The notes under the pieces: model-generated
What the model was told of the DNA's origin: nothing
What the model saw: only the letters and a program-made list of their open reading frames with translations
Database searches by the model: none
Shown: positions 3,530 through 29,784 of the stretch, one piece after another
Layout: every line of letters begins with the position of its first letter
Numbering within the stretch: position 1 is the stretch's first letter
Position numbers and translations under genes: made by a program
DNA from: Trichodesmium erythraeum IMS101
GTDB lineage: Bacteria; Cyanobacteriota; Cyanobacteriia; Cyanobacteriales; Microcoleaceae
Length of the DNA stretch: 32,000 nt
Direction of reading: 5' to 3'
NCBI RefSeq assembly: GCF_000014265.1
Contig: NC_008312.1
Coordinates: 6,090,001 to 6,122,000 of the forward strand

Positions 3530-4068
3530 ACCCCTGCTTACAGCCTATCCCCGAGCCCTAACCTCTGAAAACCTTGTGGATATTAGAAGAAAAGAGAGAA
3601 AGAGTATTGTCGTCTTAAAAAAAATATCTTTTTCAATACACTTTTTCTCCCGAAACACCCTCTTAAAACACCTACCCATAACTTTTATATTTTTTTTCAA
3701 ACTTGATATTAGGAAAAATATTTATAAAAATATTTATAAAGCATAGCTTTCAGGGGGTGAACTCAAAAATTAAAACTAATTCTAGTAATTCTAGTGTAGC
3801 TCTAGAAATACACTTGTAATTACCACTTCAAGCAAGCTATCTCTAAAAGCTTCTTATTGCTTCCTCTTACCTCACTTCAGTATGACTTACATTAAAAAAA
3901 AATTTTACTTACATCATATCATAATTTAACATTTATATCAAGTCTTAACAGGTATAAATTTTCATAGCTTTTTATCTGGTTTTCCACACAAGCATAAACT
4001 AGACACTCCAAGCAAGAATTTGTTACATTTATTTACAGTAAAGTTAATAAATATAAACAAAATAAATT

Positions 4069-4296
4069 ATGGTTATCGTTATTTCACTATTTGTAATTGC
4101 TTGGTTAGCTGCTGCAGTAATAGGAAGTCAAGCTTACTTCTTAGGTGAGCAAACAAAGCCTATCCACGAGCGTAACTGGAATTCTCAATCTTTTGAAAGC
4201 TTATCTGAATCTTTTACAGGCAATAGATTAGACTACAACAAGCGGGTACCCGCATATAGTATGGATGCCTATGCAAGTCAGAGTTTTAATAGTTGA
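4069..4296 (+). CDS. small hypothetical membrane protein (75 aa, single N-terminal TM helix)
   Basis: ORF MVIVISLFVIAWLAAAVIGSQAYFLGEQTKPIHERNWNSQ...SMDAYASQSFNS. It has a hydrophobic N-terminus and a polar tail. Local G+C is visibly higher than the flanks. No clear SD. Its last 37 nt (4260-4296) form the first cassette of the downstream array. Confidence 0.5.
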   Translation: MVIVISLFVIAWLAAAVIGSQAYFLGEQTKPIHERNWNSQSFESLSESFTGNRLDYNKRVPAYSMDAYASQSFNS

Positions 4297-5240
4297 AATG
4301 TTTAGTTAATAGTCATTTCAGTTATCAATTATCAATTATCACCTACCCTTATCTAGACTTTTTCTCTTGTTTCTGAAAGCTTGAATTATTTGACATTAAC
4401 TATGGATGCCTATGTAAGTCAGAGTTTTAATAGTTGAAATGCTTAGTTAATAGTCATTTCAGTTATCAATTATCAATTATCAACTACCCTTATCTAGACT
4501 TTTTTTTTGTTTCTGAAAGCTTAAATTATTTGACATTAACTATGGATGCCTATGCAAGTCAGAGTTTTAATAGTTGAAATGCTTAGTTAATAGTCATTTC
4601 AGTTATCAATTATCAATTATCAACTACCCTTATCTAGACTTTTTTTTTGTTTCTGAAAGCTTAAATTATTTGACATTAACTATGGATGCCTATGCAAGTC
4701 AGAGTTTTAATAGTTGAAATGCTTAGTTAATAGTCATTTCAGTTATCAATTATCAATTATCAACTACCCTTATCTAGACTTTTTCTTTTGTTTCTGAAAG
4801 CTTGAATTATTTGACATTAACTATGGATGCCTATGCAAGTCAGAGTTTTAATAGTTGAAATGCTTAGTTAATAGTCATTTCAGTTATCAATTATCAATTA
4901 TCAACTAACCTTATCTAGACTTTTTCTTTTGTTTCTGAAAGCTTAAATTATTTGACATTAACTATGGATGCCTATGCAAGTCAGAGTTTTAATAGTTGAA
5001 GTGCTTAGTTAATAGTCATTTCAGTTATCAATTATCAATTATCAACTAACCTTATCTAGACTTTTTCTTTTGTTTCTGAAAGCTTAAATTATTTGACATT
5101 AACTATGGATGCCTATGCAAGTCAGAGTTTTAATAGTTGAAATGCTTATTTAATAGTCATTTCAGTTATCAATTATCAATTATCAACTACCCTTATCTAG
5201 ACTTTTTCTCTTGTTTCTGGAAGCTTAAATTATTTGACAT
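4260..5240 (+). repeat. array block 1: seven A-type units (ORF-tail cassette, no terminator)
   Basis: Each unit carries TATGGATGCCTATGCAAGTCAGAGTTTTAATAGTTGA, which reads MDAYASQSFNS* like the end of the 4069-4296 ORF. The core variant is TTTCTGAAAGCTT. Confidence 0.95.
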
Positions 5241-5242
5241 TA

Positions 5243-5280
5243 GCTCTAGCAGATATATTCTGTTAGAGCCATTTTTTTTT
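5243..5280 (+). terminator. intrinsic terminator-like hairpin + T9 (B cassette 1 of 14)
   Basis: GCTCTAGCAGA-TATAT-TCTGTTAGAGC forms an 11-bp stem with one G-U pair and a 5-nt loop. It is followed by CA and then nine T (5272-5280). Confidence 0.7.
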
Positions 5281-5383
5281 AATTCAATAAAGCATAGTCA
5301 TTTCATTTATCAATTATCAATTATCAACTACCCTTATCTAGACTTTTTCTCTTGTTTTTGGAAGCTTAAATTATTTGACATTA

Positions 5384-5421
5384 GCTCTAGCAGATATATT
5401 CTGTTAGAGCCATTTTTTTTT
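5384..5421 (+). terminator. intrinsic terminator-like hairpin + T9 (B cassette 2)
   Basis: Sequence identical to 5243-5280, in 141-bp phase. Confidence 0.7.
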
Positions 5422-5665
5422 AATTCAATAAAGCATAGTCATTTCATTTATCAATTATCAATTATCAACTACCCTTATCTAGACTTTTTCTCTTGTTTTT
5501 GGAAGCTTAAATTATTTGACATTAGCTATGGATGCTTATGCAAGTCAGAGTGTTAATGATTGAAATGCTTAGTTAATAGTCATTTCAGTTATCAATTATC
5601 AATTATCAACTACCCTTATCTAGACTTTTTCTCTTGTTTCTGGAAGCTTAAATTATTTGACATTA

Positions 5666-5703
5666 GCTCTAGCAGATATATTCTGTTAGAGCCATTTTTT
5701 TTT
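5666..5703 (+). terminator. intrinsic terminator-like hairpin + T9 (B cassette 3)
   Basis: Sequence identical to 5243-5280, in 141-bp phase. Confidence 0.7.
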
Positions 5704-5806
5704 AATTCAATAAAGCATAGTCATTTCATTTATCAATTATCAATTATCAACTACCCTTATCTAGACTTTTTCTCTTGTTTCTGGAAGCTTAAATTATTTG
5801 ACATTA

Positions 5807-5844
5807 GCTCTAGCAGATATATTCTGTTAGAGCCATTTTTTTTT
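5807..5844 (+). terminator. intrinsic terminator-like hairpin + T9 (B cassette 4)
   Basis: Sequence identical to 5243-5280, in 141-bp phase. Confidence 0.7.
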
Positions 5845-5947
5845 AATTCAATAAAGCATAGTCATTTCATTTATCAATTATCAATTATCAACTACCCTTA
5901 TCTAGACTTTTTCTCTTGTTTTTGGAAGCTTAAATTATTTGAAATTA

Positions 5948-5985
5948 GCTCTAGCAGATATATTCTGTTAGAGCCATTTTTTTTT
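5948..5985 (+). terminator. intrinsic terminator-like hairpin + T9 (B cassette 5)
   Basis: Sequence identical to 5243-5280, in 141-bp phase. Confidence 0.7.
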
Positions 5986-6088
5986 AATTCAATAAAGCAT
6001 AGTCATTTCATTTATCAATTATCAATTATCAACTACCCTTATCTAGACTTTTTCTCTTGTTTTTGGAAGCTTAAATTATTTGACATTA

Positions 6089-6126
6089 GCTCTAGCAGAT
6101 ATATTCTGTTAGAGCCATTTTTTTTT
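6089..6126 (+). terminator. intrinsic terminator-like hairpin + T9 (B cassette 6)
   Basis: Sequence identical to 5243-5280, in 141-bp phase. Confidence 0.7.
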
Positions 6127-6229
6127 AATTCAATAAAGCATAGTCATTTCATTTATCAATTATCAATTATCAACTACCCTTATCTAGACTTTTTCTCTTG
6201 TTTTTGGAAGCTTAAATTATTTGACATTA

Positions 6230-6267
6230 GCTCTAGCAGATATATTCTGTTAGAGCCATTTTTTTTT
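6230..6267 (+). terminator. intrinsic terminator-like hairpin + T9 (B cassette 7)
   Basis: Sequence identical to 5243-5280, in 141-bp phase. Confidence 0.7.
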
Positions 6268-6511
6268 AATTCAATAAAGCATAGTCATTTCATTTATCAA
6301 TTATCAATTATTAACTACCCTTATCTAGACTTTTTCTCTTGTTTCTGGAAGCTTAAATTATTTGACATTAGCTATGGATGCTTATGCAAGTCAGAGTGTT
6401 AATGATTGAAATGCTTAGTTAATAGTCATTTCATTTATCAATTATCCATTATCAACTACCCTTATCTAGACTTTTTCTCTTGTTTCTGGAAGCTTAAATT
6501 ATTTGAAATTA

Positions 6512-6549
6512 GCTCTAGCAGATATATTCTGTTAGAGCCATTTTTTTTT
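6512..6549 (+). terminator. intrinsic terminator-like hairpin + T9 (B cassette 8)
   Basis: Sequence identical to 5243-5280, in 141-bp phase. Confidence 0.7.
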
Positions 6550-6652
6550 AATTCAATAAAGCATAGTCATTTCATTTATCAATTATCAATTATTAACTAC
6601 CCTTATCTAGACTTTTTCTCTTGTTTCTGGAAGCTTAAATTATTTGACATTA

Positions 6653-6690
6653 GCTCTAGCAGATATATTCTGTTAGAGCCATTTTTTTTT
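6653..6690 (+). terminator. intrinsic terminator-like hairpin + T9 (B cassette 9)
   Basis: Sequence identical to 5243-5280, in 141-bp phase. Confidence 0.7.
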
Positions 6691-6793
6691 AATTCAATAA
6701 AGCATAGTCATTTCATTTATCAATTATCAATTATTAACTACCCTTATCTAGACTTTTTCTCTTGTTTTTGGAAGCTTAAATTATTTGAAATTA

Positions 6794-6831
6794 GCTCTAG
6801 CAGATATATTCTGTTAGAGCCATTTTTTTTT
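6794..6831 (+). terminator. intrinsic terminator-like hairpin + T9 (B cassette 10)
   Basis: Sequence identical to 5243-5280, in 141-bp phase. Confidence 0.7.
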
Positions 6832-6934
6832 AATTCAATAAAGCATAGTCATTTCATTTATCAATTATCAATTATCAACTACCCTTATCTAGACTTTTTC
6901 TCTTGTTTTTGGAAGCTTAAATTATTTGACATTA

Positions 6935-6972
6935 GCTCTAGCAGATATATTCTGTTAGAGCCATTTTTTTTT
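6935..6972 (+). terminator. intrinsic terminator-like hairpin + T9 (B cassette 11)
   Basis: Sequence identical to 5243-5280, in 141-bp phase. Confidence 0.7.
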
Positions 6973-7075
6973 AATTCAATAAAGCATAGTCATTTCATTT
7001 ATCAATTATCAATTATCAACTACCCTTATCTAGACTTTTTCTCTTGTTTCTGGAAGCTTAAATTATTTGAAATTA

Positions 7076-7113
7076 GCTCTAGCAGATATATTCTGTTAGA
7101 GCCATTTTTTTTT
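7076..7113 (+). terminator. intrinsic terminator-like hairpin + T9 (B cassette 12)
   Basis: Sequence identical to 5243-5280, in 141-bp phase. Confidence 0.7.
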
Positions 7114-7216
7114 AATTCAATAAAGCATAGTCATTTCATTTATCAATTATCAATTATCAACTACCCTTATCTAGACTTTTTCTCTTGTTTCTGGAAGCTT
7201 AAATTATTTGAAATTA

Positions 7217-7254
7217 GCTCTAGCAGATATATTCTGTTAGAGCCATTTTTTTTT
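7217..7254 (+). terminator. intrinsic terminator-like hairpin + T9 (B cassette 13)
   Basis: Sequence identical to 5243-5280, in 141-bp phase. Confidence 0.7.
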
Positions 7255-7773
7255 AATTCAATAAAGCATAGTCATTTCATTTATCAATTATCAATTATCA
7301 ACTACCCTTATCTAGACTTTTTCTCTTGTTTCTGGAAGCTTAAATTATTTGACATTAGCTATGGATGCTTATGCAAGTCAGAGTGTTAATGATTGAAATG
7401 CTTAGTTAATAGTCATTTCAGTTATCAATTATCAACTACCCTTATCTAGACTTTTTCTTTTGTTTCTGAAAGCTTGAATTATTTGACATTAGCTATGGAT
7501 GCTTATGCAAGTCAGAGTGTTAATGATTGAAATGCTTAGTTAATAGTCATTTCAGTTATCAATTATCAATTATCAACTACCCTTATCTAGACTTTTTCTC
7601 TTGTTTCTGGAAGCTTAAATTATTTGACATTAGCTATGGATGCTTATGCAAGTCAGAGTGTTAATGATTGAAATGCTTAGTTAATAGTCATTTCAGTTAT
7701 CAATTATCAATTATCAACTACCCTTATCTAGACTTTTTCTCTTGTTTTTGGAAGCTTAAATTATTTGACATTA

Positions 7774-7811
7774 GCTCTAGCAGATATATTCTGTTAGAGC
7801 CATTTTTTTTT
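7774..7811 (+). terminator. intrinsic terminator-like hairpin + T9 (B cassette 14, terminal unit of the array)
   Basis: Sequence identical to 5243-5280. The array breaks off about 13 bp after its T tract. Confidence 0.7.
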
Positions 7812-8234
7812 AATTCAATAAAGCTTGGATAAATACAATTTAGTTATTAGTTATGCCTTATTTTTTATCCCTTATCAGTACCTCCAATGTTAGCCAGAAG
7901 CTTGAGACCTTATTCCTCCTTAATACAGCCCTTTTCAAATTGATGAACTACATCGCCATAACCAAAACCTTGCTGTAGTCTAGCAACATTAAAACTGCTG
8001 TAAGCCAGCCCTATAGATGTAATACTCAAACTTCTATCAGGGGATATAGCTACCGTACTCACTCCCCATGGGCAGATCCCAGAGCAAATAAAACAAATTA
8101 TTCAATTATGAAACTAATTCTTTCTAGTAATAACTTATCAATCATAGTTTGAGTTTTATCATTCTTGAACTTTTTCTAATTATAAGAAACAAATTATATT
8201 ACCGTTCTGAAAAACATAAGATTATCTAAATGAA

Positions 8235-8408
8235 CCTTTAATTTTTATCTAAATAATTAGTTCCATTCCTAGTTCACCCTAGCATGATCAGCGTTATCCA
8301 GTTTCCCCGGCAAAAATTAATTATCCTTTGATTTTTATCTAAATAATTAGTTCCATTCCTAGTTCACCCTAGCATGATCAGCATTATCCAGTTTCCCCGG
8401 CAAAAATT
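8235..8408. repeat. tandem duplication, 2 x ~84 bp with a 90-bp period
   Basis: CCTTTrATTTTTATCTAAATAATTAGTTCCATTCCTAGTTCACCCTAGCATGATCAGCrTTATCCAGTTTCCCCGGCAAAAATT occurs at 8235-8318 and 8325-8408. An inverted 11-mer GAACTAGGAAT at 8412-8422 is complementary to ATTCCTAGTTC at 8355-8365. Confidence 0.9.
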
Positions 8409-8861: not shown

Positions 8862-9791
8862 ATGAGCATAAATCAACCATTGAAAATTGTTTCTCTAATT
8901 CCTAGCGCTACAGAAACTATTGCAGCATTAGGATTAACTAAAGCTATTGTTGGTAGAAGTCACGAATGTAACTATCCTCCAGAAATTCAAAACTTGCCCG
9001 TTTGTACTAAACCTAAATTTAACCCTGATGGTAATAGTCGGGAAATTCACGAACGCGCTACGGAGTTATTACAGTCTGCTTTAAGTGTCTACCTTGTGGA
9101 ATTAGAAACATTAGAAAAATTACAACCTACTCATATTATTACTCAAGCTCAATGTGATGTTTGTGCCGTTAGTTTGGCAGATGTAGAAACAGCCGTCAAA
9201 AGTTTAACAAAAACCAATCCTCAAGTTATCTCTTTAGAGCCTAATTTATTAGCAGAAGTTTGGGCAGATATGGAACGAGTAGCAAATATTTTAGGAGTGA
9301 ATGGGAATGAAGTAATTTCTCAGTTGAAAAAAAGGGTAGCAGCTTGTGCAGAAAAAACGCAAAATTTAGCAACTAATAACATTCCAAAAGTAGCTTGTAT
9401 TGAGTGGAGTAACCCACTAATGGCAGCCGGAAACTGGATACCTGAATTAGTACAAATTGCTGGTGGAAATTCATTATTTGGAGAGTTGGGAAAACATTCT
9501 CCATGGTTAAAATTTGAGGAGTTATTAACTGCTAATCCAGATGTTATAATTTTTATGCCTTGTGGCTTTGATTTAGAACGTACTCGCCAAGATACTTTAG
9601 ACTTAATTAAAAGCTCAGAATGGCAAGATTTACCTGTAGTTAAATCAGGAAAAGTTTATATTACTGATGGTAATTCTTATTTCAATCGTCCGGGACCAAG
9701 ATTAGTAGATTCTTTAGAAATTTTAGCAGAAATTTTACACCCAGAATTGTTTAATTTTGGTTATCAAGGGATAGGCTGGGTGAAGTTATAG
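8862..9791 (+). CDS. periplasmic-binding-protein fold, BtuF-like cobalamin/iron-complex binding protein
   Basis: 309-aa ORF. KIVSLIPSATETIAALGL at the N-terminus and ...YFNRPGPRLVDSLEILAEILHP at the C-terminus are characteristic of the PF01497-type (BtuF/FhuD-like) family. No obvious signal peptide. Confidence 0.75.
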   Translation: MSINQPLKIVSLIPSATETIAALGLTKAIVGRSHECNYPPEIQNLPVCTKPKFNPDGNSREIHERATELLQSALSVYLVELETLEKLQPTHIITQAQCDVCAVSLADVETAVKSLTKTNPQVISLEPNLLAEVWADMERVANILGVNGNEVISQLKKRVAACAEKTQNLATNNIPKVACIEWSNPLMAAGNWIPELVQIAGGNSLFGELGKHSPWLKFEELLTANPDVIIFMPCGFDLERTRQDTLDLIKSSEWQDLPVVKSGKVYITDGNSYFNRPGPRLVDSLEILAEILHPELFNFGYQGIGWVKL

Positions 9792-10240: not shown

Positions 10241-11284
10241 ATGTATAGCCAACAAGTACAACAAATAAATCAACCCCAAAAAAATTCAGATATTCAATTA
10301 ATAAATATGTGGTTACAACAAATTCATCCCATACAGCAAAATTCTCATTTATATATAGCTCAAATGTTTCTAAAATTTATCAAAAAACCACTAAAAAAAG
10401 TAACTTCAGCAGATGTTATAGCATTTGCAAATGTGTATGGTGTTCGCTCTCATAACTCCCATTCCAATCAACAAAAACGAATAGAAACTATTAATTCCCT
10501 GCTAAAATTTGGTCAAGAAGCTGGCATACTTCCTAGAAATCAAAAAAAAACATTCTCTCCAAATACCACAAACTTCAAAACATCAGTTTATTCTCAAAAT
10601 AAAATTAAGAATTACCGAACTACTGGGAAACAGCAAAAAAAGCCATTAAACTGGTCCCAATTATTTAACCTACAGCTAGCTTCCTCCGTATTAATTGTTT
10701 TCATATTACTTATGGCAATCTTACAACTATTTCGACAAGTGAGTGGAAGTACAAATGCTAATCAAAATAAGTCAGTAACATCAGTAGTTATGCCTAAAAT
10801 AGATCCAACCAAAAATTGGGCTTATCCAGTAAATGTTCCTAGGATCAGAGCTTTTCTAGATACGATCGCTGTTACAGAAGGGACAACAGGACCGAAAGGT
10901 TATTATCGTCAATATACAGGTAGTCATTTCTTAAGCTTTGAAGACCATCCTAGAGAACTTAAATGTGCCAATAGTAATGGCAAGAAACTTTGTTCTGATG
11001 CAGCTGGTAGATATCAGTTTTTGAGTACTTCCTGGGATAGGTTTGCTCCTGTGGTCAAAGCTCAGAACTTTAGTCCTACCTATCAAGACCGTGTAGCTAT
11101 AGAATTAATTCGAGACAAAAATGCTCTGAAAGATATTGAAGAAGGGAGAGTAAAAGAAGCTTTTCAAAAGTTATATATGGTCTGGCCTTCATTTGGAGAA
11201 ACTGAAACAGATGTGGAACAACTCATGCCTAAACTTGTAGGAACTTATGAACAGAAATTAGCTCTTTATCAAATCAAAAATTAG
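10241..11284 (+). CDS. GH104 (phage lambda R-type) lysozyme / lytic transglycosylase domain protein with a TM helix and an N-terminal integrase-SAM-like region
   Basis: The C-terminal ~150 aa (FLDTIAVTEGT...YRQYTG...FEDHPRE...AAGRYQFLSTSWD...FSPTYQDRVAIELIRDKNAL) align by eye with lambda R lysozyme (FLDMLAWSEGT...DHPRK...GAGRYQLLSRWWD...FSPKSQDAVALQQI). A TM helix sits at LASSVLIVFILLMAILQLF. The N-terminal ~100 aa resemble a phage-integrase N-terminal SAM-like domain (weak). Confidence 0.85.
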   Translation: MYSQQVQQINQPQKNSDIQLINMWLQQIHPIQQNSHLYIAQMFLKFIKKPLKKVTSADVIAFANVYGVRSHNSHSNQQKRIETINSLLKFGQEAGILPRNQKKTFSPNTTNFKTSVYSQNKIKNYRTTGKQQKKPLNWSQLFNLQLASSVLIVFILLMAILQLFRQVSGSTNANQNKSVTSVVMPKIDPTKNWAYPVNVPRIRAFLDTIAVTEGTTGPKGYYRQYTGSHFLSFEDHPRELKCANSNGKKLCSDAAGRYQFLSTSWDRFAPVVKAQNFSPTYQDRVAIELIRDKNALKDIEEGRVKEAFQKLYMVWPSFGETETDVEQLMPKLVGTYEQKLALYQIKN

Positions 11285-11504: not shown

Positions 11505-11580
11505 ATAGCTAGATGAGACCTCGGGAGAAACTTACCAAAAGTTCAAATAGCTAGATGAGACCTCGGGAGAAACTTACCAA
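11505..11580. repeat. 34-bp direct repeat x2 (period 42 bp)
   Basis: ATAGCTAGATGAGACCTCGGGAGAAACTTACCAA at 11505-11538 and 11547-11580. Confidence 0.9.
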
Positions 11581-11869
11581 CAGTGCAAAACAAAAAATTA
11601 TCAAATTTATCCCACAATCATTTGAGTACATTAATTAACTATCAGTAATATGATCTTTTCTCATCAAAAATTACACTCAGCTTTTAACTACAATTCTCCT
11701 CCCAATCTTATAAACTTAGTTATATTTTCTGATTTTTCATCCTCCAGCCCCGTTATAGAAGAAGAAAATACCTGAGAGAATTTGAATCTTTATAAATTTA
11801 AAATTCCCCCCCTACTTGCGTAGCGTTATAGAATATTTGTTTTTACTAATTTTAATTAACAAAAAAATT

Positions 11870-12787
11870 ATGTTATGCCCTATTTGCGGTACAGAATACC
11901 TTGAAACAGTGCCAGAATCTTGCTCTATTTGTGAATGGAATTTAACATCTGAATCTGCTTTCTTTGCTACGGCAGAAATTTACCAAAAAAAAGAACAAGC
12001 ACAGTTGAACTGGGCTAGAAAAACTTGGCAAATGCTACAAGCCAAAGAACATTCTAGCCATCATAATCACAATTCTGGTTTACCAAATGTAGCAGCAGAT
12101 AAAATAAATGACAAACAGAATTACTTAGCCATTCAAAAACAACTAGATCAAATACAAGCTCAATTACATCAGGCAACAATAGAACGCCTTCAACTTCATT
12201 CTCAACTAGAATGGGTACTTTATCATCTCGAACAACTTAACTCAGAGACTTTAGCACAAACCCTATATCGTATTGATGAAAAGTTGCATTCCATACCAAC
12301 TCCAGAACCGCCAATGTCAGAAGTGGGGATAAACTATAACCCGTTAATAAATCTTTTGGCTGCTAGAAAATGGCGAAAAGCAGATGAACTTACTTGGGAA
12401 CTGCTGCTGCAAGCTACTTTGAGAGAGGAAGAAGGTTGGCTACACTTAGCAGACATTGAGAATTTTCCTTGCACAGACCTTTGTACTATTAATTGGCTTT
12501 GGGAATATTATAGTGATGGATTGTTTGGCTTAAATACGCAACAACGTATATGGGAAAGTGTGAGTGGGCAATATGAAGATTTTTGCGATCGCTTGGGATG
12601 GCGAGATGGAGAAAATTGGAAATATTATGATGAACTCTCTTTTAACCTGGAAGCTCCAGAAGGTCACTTACCTATAATTATATGGCGACGACGTGCTTGT
12701 TATGGGGTAGGTCAAATGATGGCTGGAGAAACTTTTTTGGCTTTGAGAAGACGGGTGACAACTTGTACTGGTATGACTACGGACTAA
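11870..12787 (+). CDS. zinc-ribbon / coiled-coil / GUN4-domain protein
   Basis: The track ORF opens at TTG 11816; the in-frame ATG at 11870 (MLCPICGTEY...CSICEW, a Cys4 zinc ribbon) is the more plausible start. The C-terminus (RKWRKADELTWELLLQ...GWLHLADIENFPCTDLCTINWLWEYYSDGLFGLNTQQRIWESV...LGWR...LSFNLEAPEGHLP) matches the GUN4 domain pattern. A HIP1 site lies at 12585. Confidence 0.85.
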   Translation: MLCPICGTEYLETVPESCSICEWNLTSESAFFATAEIYQKKEQAQLNWARKTWQMLQAKEHSSHHNHNSGLPNVAADKINDKQNYLAIQKQLDQIQAQLHQATIERLQLHSQLEWVLYHLEQLNSETLAQTLYRIDEKLHSIPTPEPPMSEVGINYNPLINLLAARKWRKADELTWELLLQATLREEEGWLHLADIENFPCTDLCTINWLWEYYSDGLFGLNTQQRIWESVSGQYEDFCDRLGWRDGENWKYYDELSFNLEAPEGHLPIIIWRRRACYGVGQMMAGETFLALRRRVTTCTGMTTD

Positions 12788-13788
12788 ATTTCAAATAGAT
12801 GAGAATTTTTTAATAGTAATAGTGACTACTATTTGTTACTTATATAAGCAAAATAAATATTTATGAAAGAATAATTTTAAAATTTCCATGTTAAGCAAAT
12901 TATGAACAAATGTAAAAATAGAGGGTTTATTGACACTATTCTCAATTATTTTACGACTTTACTTGATTTGGAGTCTATGATATGATTTTCTAAATTCACA
13001 GGCTTGGTTTGACTAACTTATTAAAAAAAAGCTGCAAACTATCTTAAATTGGTATAATGTTAAGCAATATTAAATATAATCTCGGGACGAAAAAAACAAA
13101 TTTTCCAGAAACAACTTAACATATAGAAGCCCAAAATTTGACAAAAACATATACTTATGCATACATAATTTTGCTAAACCAACGTTTTTTGTAATAAGCC
13201 ATCAATTTTTTTTGGAGGGATGAGCTATAATAAAAAATATTCACTCCTTAGCATTACCATTTATTTCTGTTCTTACCAAGAACGAACTACTTCCTCAAAA
13301 ATTAGATTTTTTTTCCACTTGAGTGATAAAAATCAACTAGTAAAGTCAATATTAGGGTTAGTTAACTTTGAGTGATTTGATGATATTTTTTTGATATAAA
13401 TCTATATATACTTAAGAGTACAAAGTTAAGTTCTCCTAAAAAAACTATTAGCCTTAAAAGCTGAAAGTATTATAGGAAAAGGCTTACCGTATTTATCGTT
13501 ACTTTGAGAAAGTGTCTCACCTTGAGATAGCTATAAGCCAAAGCTCGCAATAGTTATTCCCAGAACTTCCCACTGTCTAGTACATATACTTATACAGCTA
13601 TAACTTATCAAACTTAACTGATTGATTGTGGTTAAATTAGACCAAAAGAGTAATTTGTGGTGTAGACTCAACCCACCGCCTAACCAGATTTCTGATAAAT
13701 TGCCTAACTGCAAGACTTTGTAATTAAAACTTCTATGAGCGCCAACCCACCTAAGCGACATATAGTTATTTTAAATAAAACTGAGACA

Positions 13789-14641
13789 CTATTTGGCACA
13801 ATAATTACGAATAACTTCATCAAGAGATGTCTTGATAGGTGAATAAATTCTAGCTCTTTTTAATGCACTAAAATCATGTTCTTAGTCATTTAAATCAGGA
13901 GAGTATTTTGGCAAAAATAGTAATTGGTGACCCCCTGCTTCTACTAATTCTCTAATAACGTTTTTTCGTAATTAATAGGTGAATTATCCGTGCAGCAGTA
14001 CACTGGGAATTTTTAATAATGGTAATAAATGTTTATCTAACCATTGTTCAAATCCCGCGACATTTATACTTCCTTTGAATATAATTGGTGCTATTAAATC
14101 TTTTTCCTTTTTTCTTCTCCCGGCTACTAAATTTTCTCTTTTACCTCGTTTTCCCTCTTGCTCACCATAAACTTTTTTCTCTTTTTTTGACCAGGCATAA
14201 ATACAGTCTTAATTATCTTTAAATCCTGATTCATCAATAAATACAAGGCTTTTACTTCCAAATTTTTTTATCAAATTTCGTAGTTTCTGATAATATTTTA
14301 TCCTTTCTTCTATATTTCTTTCTCTATAACAAAGTTGTTGATTTTTTCAAGGAAAATTCATTTTTTTTAAAGCATAAAATATAGCTGGTTGATTAACTCC
14401 AAATTTTTTAGCTCTGTCTGACAATAAGCAACTCTAGATTTGCTGTTACAACTTTTTCTAATTCTTTCCAATCTAATTTTATTTGACAACTTTTTACCTT
14501 AGTTGCTGACAATTTTGGCCTAAATAAACATCTATATATCGAAGCTATTCCTATCACAAATGTATGAGCTGCTTTAGTAATTGTACCGCCATTTTCTACA
14601 AAATTTATTACTTTTTATCTGAAGCCTAAACTGTCAGGCAT
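13789..14641 (-). pseudogene. IS630-family (Tc1/mariner-like DDE) transposase relic with multiple stops and frameshifts
   Basis: Reverse-strand reading from ATG 14639-14641: MPDSLGFR*KVINFVENGGTITKAAHTFVIGIASIYRC... then ...LVAGRRKKEKDLIAPIIFKGSINVAGFEQWLDKHLLPLLK... and ...LLFLPKYSPDLND*EHDFSALKRA...EVIRNYCAK*. The YSPDLNPIE-type motif is the IS630 hallmark. At least 8 in-frame stops or frame changes. Confidence 0.7.
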
Positions 14642-15663
14642 AGTTCAAAATATTTTCTAGTTGACTTAATTTTATTATACCCAATTCTTGTTTCAATCTT
14701 AATTAAAACTACTATAAATGTTTAAAAGCAAAGACTTTCTTGTTGGCATTAGGAGATACCCCATAGTAATTTAATCTTACTGTCCATTGTTCACAATCAT
14801 TAGCACTAATAGTATTGGCTACTCATTGTTGTATCAGTAATAGCAGCTTCAGTTACTGAAAGACAAGTAGCAACAAAGCTATTATCAAAGGAAAGAAATA
14901 ACAGACATAAATCTACCTTGTGGTTATTACTATTTTTGCCAATGCTGCCTTGACGGAAGAAGATTTCATAAAGTTAATCATAGATTTTTTTTGCTTAATC
15001 ATCGAAAAACTTTTATGTCCAAAAGAAACTATATGGCTTTAAGATTTGACTCAAACGATGGGTAAAACGAAAAAACATAATGTTGGTTTAATTTGTAGAG
15101 AAGATTCAACAAGTATGAATAGAGAAATGCTACTAGAGAATAGTCCCCAGAAATAAATTTTTTATACCATCCTCTAACATTATCTACACTTTTGTTCGGC
15201 TTCCCTCACAGTTATAGGAATCGCCATTACTATATAATTAAACATATGGGGGTTAATAATTAACTCTCAAAGTCTTTCATTATATTGGCTAAAGCCTTTT
15301 GCTTTTGCTAATCGAAAAAAGAGCCAAAGGGAAGGATAAAATCAGTTCATAATTATAGGATTAATGAGGCAGAATAATTCTGAAGGCTTTAAGGGACAAA
15401 TGCATCCCACTACCTCCTTCATTTCCCGTTTCGTCCTAATGCTCTTAAATGCAACGTCCGTAGAAAATGTGAATAATTTATATCCTCCATGGGTGCGGTT
15501 GGAGCAAAAAAGCTGTTAGTTCATTTCTTAATAGTTGCAATTTCACATAAGCATAGTATTATTTTTTCCTTCTTTACTATAAGGAGGGAGGGTTTGCTCC
15601 TAACTTCAGCTATAATCCAACTTATTGTATAAATAAATAGTATCTTAGATAGATTTTTGAGCA

Positions 15664-28250: not shown

Positions 28251-28289
28251 ATAACTAATAACTGATAACTGATAACTAATAAATAACTG
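28251..28289. repeat. heptanucleotide (STRR-like) repeat ATAACTR x4-5
   Basis: ATAACTA ATAACTG ATAACTG ATAACTA ATAAATAACTG, immediately downstream of the cobQ stop. Confidence 0.85.
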
Positions 28290-28317: not shown

Positions 28318-29784
28318 TTATGTTAAAACTGGTTTTAAATCTAGATGCTCATTAACTTTATCTGCGATTGAATCTAAAATAATTTCTCGTTGTTCTCTAT
28401 AATTAGAAATACTAGTTGGTAAACTGTTTAATCCCCGTTTGTGACGTAGGATATTTAACCAAGAACGACGCCAAGAACCATTATCAAATATTCCATGTAA
28501 ATAGTTTCCCCAGATAGAATCATAACTATCGACAAAACCCAAATCATAGTCATTAAATAAAGGCTTAACTATATCTGGTTTTGTAACTATAGTTCTACCT
28601 TGATGAATTTCATAACCTATGACTGGTAAATTTCCTAAGGGATAATTAGCAATAACTTGTCGCTGACTGGCAATTTTTTTAGGAGTAATTGTAGTTATTA
28701 AGGGTAGTAATTCTAATCCTTTATATTCTCCTTGTTTTCCTTCTAAACCTTGAGAGTCAATTAAAACTTCACCAAGCATTTGAAATCCACCACAAATTCC
28801 CATTACTATACCACCAGAACTTTGGTAAGATTTGATGGCTTCTGCCATACCACTTTTTTGTAATACTAATAAATCGTTTATAGTAGTTTTAGTACCAGGG
28901 ATAATTATGGCATCAGGATCACCCAAACTATCATTAGGATGAATATATTTAATTTTGACACTAGACTCTGCTTCTAAAGGTTCAAAATCAGTAAAATTAG
29001 AAATTCTTGGTAATCTAATGATAGCAATTGTAATATCAGTTGTATGTTTATTATAACGTTGTTCTAAAATACTCAAAGAATCTTCTGCGGGAAAGGCTTC
29101 ATTAATCCAAGGAATGACACCTATTACAGGAATATTAGTTTTTTTTTCTAACCAGTGAATACCTGAGTCTAAGAGAGATCTTTGTCCTCTAAATTTGTTA
29201 ATTACTATTCCTTTGATTAAATTTCTTTCTTCTGGTTCTAGTAATTCTAATGTACCAATAATATGAGCAAAAGCACCTCCTCGGTCAATATCAACTACTA
29301 AAATTGTAGAGGCATTCAAATGTTTGGCGACTCGCATATTAGTTAGATCTCGGTGCTTCAGATTTATTTCTGCTGGACTACCGGCTCCTTCACAAACTAT
29401 CATGTTAAACTCTTGAGATAAAGTTTCTAAAGATTCTTGGATGGCATTCCAACCAATATCAAAATACTGCTGATAATAATCTACAGCTCCTACAGTACCA
29501 CTAGCTTTTCCTTTAATAATAACTTGAGAAGTCATATCTCCTTGAGGCTTTAATAAAATTGGGTTCATTTCTATTGCAGGAGTTACACCTGCGGCCCAAG
29601 CTTGTACTGCTTGAGCATGACCCATTTCTCCACCGGTAGATGTGACATAGGAGTTCAAAGCCATATTTTGTCCTTTGAAGGGGGTGACTTTCCAACCACG
29701 ACGTGATAAAATTCTACAGATGGCTGTAGTAATTAGAGATTTTCCGGCATGGGAAGTAGTTCCCACTACCATAATTGCTTTCAT
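28318..29784 (-). CDS. cobQ: cobyric acid synthase
   Basis: 488-aa ORF. MVVGTTSHAGKSLITTAICRIL...FKGQNMALNSYVT..GGEMGHAQAVQAWAAGV...MNPILLKP plus a C-terminal GATase1-like domain (CGGFQMLG) match CobQ/CbiP. Confidence 0.92.
   Translation of the reverse strand: MKAIMVVGTTSHAGKSLITTAICRILSRRGWKVTPFKGQNMALNSYVTSTGGEMGHAQAVQAWAAGVTPAIEMNPILLKPQGDMTSQVIIKGKASGTVGAVDYYQQYFDIGWNAIQESLETLSQEFNMIVCEGAGSPAEINLKHRDLTNMRVAKHLNASTILVVDIDRGGAFAHIIGTLELLEPEERNLIKGIVINKFRGQRSLLDSGIHWLEKKTNIPVIGVIPWINEAFPAEDSLSILEQRYNKHTTDITIAIIRLPRISNFTDFEPLEAESSVKIKYIHPNDSLGDPDAIIIPGTKTTINDLLVLQKSGMAEAIKSYQSSGGIVMGICGGFQMLGEVLIDSQGLEGKQGEYKGLELLPLITTITPKKIASQRQVIANYPLGNLPVIGYEIHQGRTIVTKPDIVKPLFNDYDLGFVDSYDSIWGNYLHGIFDNGSWRRSWLNILRHKRGLNSLPTSISNYREQREIILDSIADKVNEHLDLKPVLT

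Follow-up and report, generated by a model that had tools for sequence, protein, structure and literature searches.

The psb35-related gene and the repeat array behind it

The window analysed here, a whole stretch of 32,000 nucleotides from the genome of Trichodesmium erythraeum IMS101 (NC_008312.1, positions 6,090,001 to 6,122,000), carries a gene related to psb35 at 4069-4296 on the plus strand, and the 3' end of this gene runs into a tandem array of short repeats which occupies 4260-7824 on the same strand. The gene, called psb35 below, encodes a 75-aa protein with one N-terminal hydrophobic helix. The protein is identical to ABG52969.1 of IMS101 and matches the NCBIfam model NF047380 ("photosystem II protein, Psb35-related") with 140 bits, the cut-off being 80, over profile positions 1-74 of 75. 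It also has a precomputed match to PF26637, as have all of its 334 homologues across cyanobacteria. Synechocystis Psb35 (ssl2148) is found in association with the CP47 assembly module and its Hlip partners, to which it lends stability (PMC9145668). A btuF-like gene begins downstream of the array, at 8862; its product and one further protein of the window are identical to ABG52972.1 and ABG52981.1 of IMS101, respectively. We propose that the array is probably a tandem amplification, i.e. a macrosatellite, of the psb35 tail, 3' untranslated region (3'UTR) and terminator, and mostly a neutral by-product of DNA duplication.

In the array 25 cores alternate with 26 cassettes of 50 bp, with a period of 141 bp. 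Tandem Repeats Finder detected a single tandem array at 4309-7824 (period 141, 25.0 copies, 91% matches, score 4549), and the register given by a repeat finder is the same as that of our parsing, in which the sequence was cut at the invariant anchor TAGTCATTTCA. The two agree with each other and with the period, cassette lengths and cassette order of the initial annotation, which had been made from the letters of the sequence. All 26 cassettes are exactly 50 bp long, while the cores measure 91 bp in 22 cases, 90 bp in two and 84 bp in one. The 90-bp cores belong to units 2 and 3, where a run of nine T replaces TTTTTCTCTT/TTTTTCTTTT. The 84-bp core has two TTATCAA heptads instead of three. A short unit lacking one heptad had been annotated at 7356-7489; it exists, with its short core at 7410-7493.

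Cassettes are of three kinds and follow one another in the order A seven times, B twice, A', B five times, A', B six times, A' three times and a terminal B. The 14 copies of B are identical except for the last base of the terminal one, the five copies of A' are identical, and those of A show four singleton changes; A' differs from A at four sites. When A and B are aligned without gaps, they have GTyAGAG in common at the same offset (positions 18-24). Seven A+core units form the first block (4260-5244, plus strand, as are all features of the array), in which the 50-bp A cassettes start at 4260, 4401, 4541, 4681, 4822, 4963 and 5104. The second block (5245-7359) holds, by the parsing and the table of core variants, 13 internal B cassettes with cores of the type that we call beta, and is interrupted by A' at 5527-5576 and 6373-6422. 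The third (7360-7775) consists of three A'+core units, with A' at 7360, 7494 and 7635, and contains the 84-bp core. The terminal B cassette lies at 7776-7824.

The table of core variants also reveals that cores differ in a manner related to their cassettes. Alpha-type cores (G at position 12, CTGAAAGC and ATTAAC) go with A cassettes, and beta-type cores (T at position 12, CTGGAAGC and ATTAGC) with B cassettes. Position 12 is, with one exception, G after A or A' and T after B. At position 90 the cores have A if cassette A follows and G if A' or B follows. At the transitions between A and B stretches recombinant cores are found. In a four-gamete test on the 25 aligned cores all four allele combinations were present in six of 28 informative site pairs, which indicates recombination between units or recurrent mutation and bears out the mosaic pattern of core polymorphism that had been annotated.

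Origin of the cassettes and the core

The first A cassette (4260-4309) consists of the last 37 nt of the psb35 open reading frame (ORF), including its TGA stop, plus the 13 nt that follow. The array thus starts inside the 3' end of a small membrane-protein ORF, as had been noticed, and copies of these 37 and 13 nt make up 12 of the 26 cassettes (A and A'), while the B-type units copy the terminator of the gene. Cassette B is, as predicted from its sequence, a strong intrinsic terminator on the strand of psb35. In its first copy (5243-5279, plus strand) the stem GCTCTAGCAGA/TCTGTTAGAGC has 11 pairs, five of them G-C, closed by the loop TATAT and followed by CA and nine T. A terminator scan found 14 sites where shuffled sequences give 1.0, and no terminator-like site before 5243, i.e. 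none in the A block (4260-5244). Accordingly 14 of the 25 units are provided with a terminator and 11, the A and A' units, are not. The B hairpin is the centroid structure, at about -17.5 kcal/mol, and the sole stable RNA structure of a unit, since RNA of A plus core folds no better than its shuffles (z = +0.65).

The core itself is composed of two halves. Its 5' half, for example at 5295-5342 (plus strand), reads TAGTCATTTCA(G/T)-(TTATCAA)x3-CTACCCTTATCTAGAC, which can also be written as TCATTTCAG-(TTATCAA)3-CTACCCTTATC. By sequence this is an instance of a dispersed heptamer element similar to the short tandemly repeated repetitive (STRR) sequences of cyanobacteria: an element of the form CATTTCAG-(TTATCAG)n-TAyCTC stands at seven further places in four related loci (L012, L021, L024 and L025, from Okeania and the genome P01_H01), and the number of heptads is 2, 3 or 4 across units and strains. 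The 3' half of the core, for example at 5343-5385 (plus strand), reads TTTTTCTCTTGTTT(C/T)TGGAAGCTTAAATTATTTGACATTAGC and corresponds to a psb35 3'UTR element which precedes the terminator in relatives. Because a single-copy homologue of it, with the same flank, follows psb35 in these relatives, the 3' half of the core together with B is the conserved 3'-terminal element of the psb35 transcription unit. The apparent modularity of the array would then be explained by its origin from the psb35 tail, 3'UTR and terminator. The initial annotation had seen two cassettes of the same length swapped within a fixed scaffold. They are not foreign modules: A is the 3' end of the gene, B is its conserved terminator, and the core is the 3'UTR that lies between them in the single-copy relatives.

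Comparison with relatives

We compared psb35 loci from 80 species genomes and metagenomic contigs with close variants. The gene is followed by one single 3'UTR of 100-260 nt in two Dapis loci (L013, L014), the metagenome-assembled genome (MAG) P01_H01 (L012), Okeania (L016, L020-L025), a Trichodesmium-like MAG (L017), a Microcoleaceae MAG (L022) and the closest non-erythraeum variants (L095-L099). Alignment of these loci (alignment A1) shows that the 3'UTR ends in CTCTTGTTTCTGAAAGCTTGAATTATTTGA..., a hairpin homologous to B, a T-run and then GATTCAATTTGGC...ATAAATACAA, and this terminal flank matches the right edge of the array, AATTCAATAAAGCTTGGATAAATACAA. According to the same alignment, Dapis, Okeania, L017, L095 and L099 have all conserved the block CTCTTGTTTCTGAAAGCTTGAATTATTT. 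The B hairpin follows psb35 in 13 related loci, with compensatory changes at three of its nine pairs. The full collinear order is found in Okeania KiyG1, where the stop codon is followed by CATTTCAG-(TTATCAG)x4-TACCTCTATC, the conserved element and the terminator. The single-copy 3' ends of Dapis, Okeania and other Trichodesmium-like genomes are therefore like the array in the gene tail, CTCTTGTTTCTGAAAGCTTGAATTATTT, the hairpin GCTCTAGCAG...CTGTTAGAGC, the T-run and the flank. They are unlike it in that all of this occurs only once, and in that the middle of the 3'UTR is longer and, in most of them, unrelated. From this comparison it follows that A, core and B in succession are one ordinary psb35 3' end, and that the array is that 3' end repeated. 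The right flank of the terminal B cassette, TTGGATAAATACAATTT..., is collinear with the flank of the single-copy terminator, and this last cassette would be the original psb35 terminator.

In Trichodesmium MAG_R03 and MAG_R04 both the array and the B terminator are absent, and psb35 lies about 350 bp from the same btuF-like gene. On the genomes and contigs compared, the array appears to be a feature of the T. erythraeum clade. An exact search with a 30-mer of the core gave no match in GTDB species genomes, where IMS101 itself is seemingly masked or absent, and one with a 21-mer gave none in Joint Genome Institute (JGI) metagenomes. Alpha cores hold the outgroup states GAAAGC and, in some units, TTGAATT, while the changes found in beta cores are derived. 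At two sites of A', G26 and G32, the outgroup state is retained which the present psb35 tail has lost. The latter indicates either that the duplication is older than part of the divergence of the gene tail or that cassettes and gene tail have exchanged sequence.

Two further kinds of duplication were seen next to psb35 in relatives. In three Okeania genomes two tandem copies of the gene itself lie 620-750 bp apart (L020 at 10001 and 10749, L021 at 9381 and 10001, L025 at 8419 and 9058), with 79-81% DNA identity to the query, and the psb35 locus seems prone to tandem duplication in this clade. In nine Microcoleus loci (L031, L037, L043, L046, L067, L076, L077, L080 and L088) psb35 is followed by 3-5.5 tandem double-hairpin units of 76-77 bp, each made of ACAGGCAnnnTGCCTGT plus CCACAAn..TTTGTGG, which begin about 20-70 nt past the stop codon. 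We considered these as the same phenomenon and rejected this, as the ACAGGCAnnnTGCCTGT hairpin is also found elsewhere in arrays of other periods and no sequence is common with the T. erythraeum array. The Microcoleus repeats are unrelated to it or at most analogous.

The array in wild populations

Ten contigs carry an identical psb35. Eight of them end 39-597 bp past the gene, inside the array, and the two that cross it (L001 and L002) have it collapsed to three units. An independent T. erythraeum assembly (L003, GCA_018457135.1) contains a run of at least five A-type units with the marker bases of IMS101 units 1 and 2, and all junction types recur in contigs from Tara and ALOHA. Two Logan contigs (L100, L101) end about 55 bp after psb35, just inside the array, and are uninformative on transcripts. 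The array is thus not the artefact of one assembly, the wild short-read assemblies giving its first units and all four junction types. The exact copy number and the order of units past the first ones rest on the IMS101 assembly alone.

Wild contigs also differ from IMS101 in the array. In L091-L093, from ALOHA and other sources, the second cassette is a hybrid of A and A', and a 98-bp core with four heptads is present, which indicates that slippage in the heptads is ongoing. Where the IMS101 protein ends in ...SFNS, wild Psb35 variants with 99% identity to it have ...SFND or ...SINS. The ...SFND ending is encoded by the hybrid cassette as well, and for that reason exchange between array cassettes and the psb35 tail is indicated. 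Together with the four-gamete violations, the hybrid cassettes and the variants in heptad number bear out one of the functions listed as candidates in the initial annotation, namely that of a recombination substrate.

Proposed mechanism

The ancestral layout would have been a single copy of the gene tail (A), the heptamer STRR-like element and the conserved element of about 40 nt (together the core) and the terminator (B). Two illegitimate duplications could then have created the two new junctions, core|A and B|core. The former reads ...GACATTAGC|TATGGATGC in the array while the gene reads ...CGCATATAG|TATGGATGC, and comparison of the two identifies CATTAG/CATATAG as microhomology; the latter reads ...CAATAAAGC|ATAGTCATTTCA. 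With these junctions an A+core and a core+B repeat register would be available. Both may have been expanded and interleaved through unequal crossing-over and gene conversion among cores of 91 bp, and slippage in the heptads may have changed the length of cores.

A promoter-like site upstream of psb35 (4000-4029, plus strand; TAGACA-18-TACATT with TG before the second hexamer, 9/12 in a consensus scan) may be the start of the transcription unit that reads into the array. RNA polymerase coming from psb35 would pass the seven terminator-free A+core units, about 1 kb, and halt at the first of the 14 terminators. The psb35 mRNA most likely has, judged from the predicted terminators, a 3'UTR of about 1 kb that is AU-rich, repetitive and unstructured, with its 3' end at 5243-5279. 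Little transcription should continue beyond the first few B units, and the btuF-like gene would be well insulated. As the first cassette is the gene's own tail, recombination within A-type units could also swap the last codons of Psb35 for those of array copies. These side-effects apart, the array can be explained without any function, and we judge it mostly neutral.

Several observations speak against this interpretation. Since A and B are both 50 bp, both registers are exactly 141 bp, and we estimate that equal periods from two independent junctions would be a coincidence of about 1 in 50-100. The shared length could be due to chance, to a bias in template switching where the pairing of cores holds two arrays in register, or to a constraint on spacing, and the equal registers are a hint that some constraint exists. 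The 14 copies of B are all alike whereas five sites are variable in the intervening cores, a difference without statistical significance (p about 0.11). Of the five variable sites in B-type units, four fall at third codon positions of an open plus-strand frame (p about 0.045). A good sigma-70-like site is present in every B-type unit (TTGACA-16-TATTCT in nine, TTGAAA in the same place in five), and very high transcription is known from other IMS101 repeat arrays (PMC4143802). In addition, both the 3'UTR of 1 kb and the lack of transcription in the units further downstream are deduced from the sequence.

Alternative explanations

The likeliest of the alternatives is a many-copy small-RNA locus similar to NsiR1, with a promoter in each B-type unit, but we consider it unlikely. 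The promoter would consist of TTGACA at the end of the core and, after a spacer of 16 nt, TATTCT, which falls into the loop and the 3' arm of the hairpin formed by B. Transcripts starting inside the 3' arm would not form the hairpin and would run for about 145 nt to the terminator of the next unit, which would yield up to 14 near-identical RNAs containing the conserved psb35 3'UTR element. A consensus scan scores the plus-strand site 10/12 in nine units and 9/12 (TTGAAA-16-TATTCT) in the other five. The perfect -35 hexamer is specific to T. erythraeum, relatives having TTGATT, TTTTAT or TTTAAT in its place, and each B-type unit ends in a strong terminator. IMS101 is also known to transcribe repeat arrays heavily, with 26.7% of its start sites leading to non-coding RNA (PMC4143802, PMC6596454). 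However, an equal or better site occurs in 13% of dinucleotide-shuffled units on either strand and in 7% on the plus strand, and the predicted transcript would start just before the U9 tract. The 11 A and A' units have neither such a promoter nor a terminator, and besides the terminator hairpin no RNA structure is predicted. Rfam searches, in gathering mode over the whole window and in E-value mode over 3900-5800, found no family and only chance-level hits (the snoRNA snR57 with E = 0.8, or worse), and a scan for tRNA and transfer-messenger RNA found none. No repeat RNA of about 25 units is among the top-20 transcripts in the main text of PMC4143802, which is weak evidence as the window is not placed there.

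A small-RNA family might even be arising from the 3'UTR, which we hold to be quite unlikely. In this version a new -35 hexamer, TTGACA, and a -10 hexamer inside the preceding terminator hairpin would have turned the B-type units into 14 units of promoter and terminator making RNAs of about 145 nt, and the 141-bp register would be kept because the way in which promoter and terminator overlap, or a heptad-binding protein, depends on it. The heptad read on the minus strand, TGATAAT, resembles a Fur-box half-site; we dropped this resemblance on account of the 7-bp spacing of the direct repeats and the TTATCAG form in relatives.

Very unlikely, in our opinion, is a selected cis-regulatory 3'UTR, in which the copy number of A+core units would tune the stability or translation of psb35 mRNA, the stack of terminators would insulate, and A and A' would serve as a reservoir of C-termini. 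In accordance with such a role, different genera have conserved the element that directly precedes the terminator but freely replaced the remainder of the 3'UTR, wild psb35 variants and array cassettes share end residues, and the composition of the array varies among populations. But conservation within the Psb35 family is in any case lowest at the last 3-4 residues, a single terminator is enough in every relative, and the element has been wholly lost in Trichodesmium MAG_R03 and MAG_R04. Neither was pairing found between the core and the 5' region of psb35 (5'UTR and start), its -8.5 kcal/mol standing against a shuffle mean of -14.7.

Over-expansion or mis-ordering of the array in the IMS101 assembly is highly improbable. 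A unit is shorter than a Sanger read, identity between units exceeds 95%, and short-read assemblies fail to cross the array; yet unit-specific variants give the IMS101 assembly a unique path, and both the run of A-type units in GCA_018457135.1 and the recurrence of every junction type in wild contigs, described above, are independent of it.

Hardly credible at all is a repeat protein encoded by the three long plus-strand ORFs of the array (5137-5556, 5560-6402 and 6406-7389; 47 codons per unit, with predicted peptides such as YQLSIINYPYLDFFSCFWK), for although the frame is open across up to six units, 141 is divisible by 3 and three of the four third-position changes mentioned above are synonymous, these ORFs have TTG starts only and no ATG, contain 2 to 6 strong intrinsic terminators and T9 runs each, are homologous to non-coding 3'UTR and terminator in relatives, find no match at E <= 0.001 in a collection of 5.8 billion protein sequences and a sole family match, FliW, at 30.7 bits where the cut-off is 169, and a 47-codon open frame is by our own estimate expected, in any of the six frames, in about 15% of units at 33% G+C. 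As genes they were rejected on the TTG starts, the internal terminators, the 3'UTR origin and the lack of a homologue.

Relation to known repeat systems

The most similar case that we are aware of belongs to IMS101 itself, whose most strongly expressed RNAs stem from an array of more than 6 kb (ncf104733 and following; Pfreundt et al. 2014, PMC4143802). Each of the seven repeats in it, 736-973 bp long, includes a duplicate of the 3' part of Tery_0080, the adjacent gene (PMC4143802). The psb35 array resembles it in the duplication of the 3' part of an adjacent gene and in the likeness of its units, which are more than 96% identical in the larger array (PMC4143802). The two differ in unit length (736-973 bp as opposed to 141 bp) and in that the whole psb35 unit, in two registers, comes from the 3' end of the neighbouring gene and not just a part of it. 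Most of the unit sequence of the larger array is without known origin, whereas every part of the psb35 unit is accounted for. In the larger array, moreover, the gene fragments are on the strand opposite to the transcripts, and start sites in each unit and very high expression have been shown, while the psb35 array is known from its sequence. The psb35 array is a smaller, fully explicable relative of the larger one.

NsiR1 of heterocystous cyanobacteria is transcribed from a demonstrated NtcA/HetR-dependent promoter in each repeat of an array upstream of hetF (Ionescu et al. 2010, as summarised in PMC6596454). The two arrays have in common direct tandem repeats in a filamentous cyanobacterium and units that end in a Rho-independent terminator. 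The psb35 array differs in having no sequence or structure match in Rfam, no promoter above chance, an origin from a 3'UTR, and 11 of 25 units lacking a terminator. Membership of the NsiR1 type fails on homology, on the presence of a terminator in every unit and on location, but NsiR1 is a possible model, by analogy, for the B-type units if promoters exist in them.

The STRR sequences, heptanucleotide repeats of filamentous cyanobacteria, were reportedly described by Mazel et al. in 1990. The 5' half of the core is like them in being a heptamer run (TTATCAA two to four times), dispersed in intergenic DNA of the Okeania/Dapis/Trichodesmium clade and variable in copy number. It is unlike them in that its heptamer differs from those of STRR1-3, and the 141-bp array as a whole is a higher-order repeat with one heptamer element per unit. 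The array had been annotated as unlike STRR; this is not correct for the 5' half of the core and correct only for the remainder. Another heptamer microsatellite is present in the window at 28251-28286, where ATAACTA is repeated five times just downstream of the stop codon of a cobQ-like gene (28318-29784, minus strand). On the minus strand at 28262-28275 it contains TTATCAG twice, flanked by TTATTAG, and is a degenerate copy from the heptamer family to which the core's 5' half belongs.

The bacterial interspersed mosaic elements (BIMEs) of enterobacteria, clusters of repetitive extragenic palindromic (REP) units, are mosaic extragenic repeats found after stop codons, in which a hairpin module is combined with alternative linkers and which affect mRNA 3' ends. 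They are dispersed families of inverted REP units, in contrast to the single locus of direct, locally derived repeats examined here. That the array is neither a CRISPR locus nor a cluster of miniature inverted-repeat transposable elements was correctly annotated. Its "spacers" are three sequences only, each repeated 5-14 times, the "repeat" would be 91 bp long, and the Rfam scan of the window showed no CRISPR family. No description of the array was found in the searchable literature, and locus tags in its vicinity led to nothing specific there.

Other features of the window

A spacer of 1 kb separates the array from the btuF-like gene. Two tandem copies of 90 bp, 96% identical, lie in it at 8229-8408, and this duplication is also present in the wild contigs L001, L002 and L091. 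IMS101 accessions skip from ABG52969 (psb35) to ABG52972 (btuF-like), so two "proteins" are annotated between 4296 and 8862; they are probably spurious ORFs on the array or its flank.

Other short tandem duplications lie further from psb35. At 460-837 three tandem copies of 126 bp, 88-93% identical, stand before a gene for an 897-aa PMT-like glycosyltransferase/TPR protein, the last copy ending exactly at its ATG (836). This looks like a tandem amplification of the promoter and 5'UTR of that gene, a mirror image of the psb35 3' array. Two tandem copies of 42 bp occupy 11505-11588, about 230 bp upstream of a GUN4-domain gene (11816-12787), and from 12788 to 15663 nearly 2.9 kb are free of any ORF of at least 100 aa on either strand, which is typical of the large non-coding fraction of this genome. 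A 347-aa ORF at 10241-11284, which wild contigs have conserved, matches no family other than, weakly and with its N-terminal part, a phage-integrase SAM-like domain (E = 0.0013, which falls short of the cut-off).

Conclusions

The array offers experimental material of an uncommon kind, as 14 identical terminators are stacked in it and the 3'UTR varies between strains by whole units, which could be used for testing the effects of 3'UTR length and terminator dosage on expression. To our knowledge T. erythraeum is without Rho. The array is also a satellite through which the final codons of a photosystem II assembly factor can be rewritten. If its units are individually transcribed, and this is true only under that condition, it would be an example of a 3'UTR becoming a multi-copy small-RNA locus.

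About 40% of the T. erythraeum genome is non-coding, far above other cyanobacteria, and the origin of this DNA is an open question (PMC4143802). The psb35 array can be regarded as a fully resolved example of one route to such DNA: a non-coding block of 3.6 kb is traced base by base to an amplified gene tail, 3'UTR and terminator of about 190 bp, the single-copy ancestor of which is still visible in sister genera.

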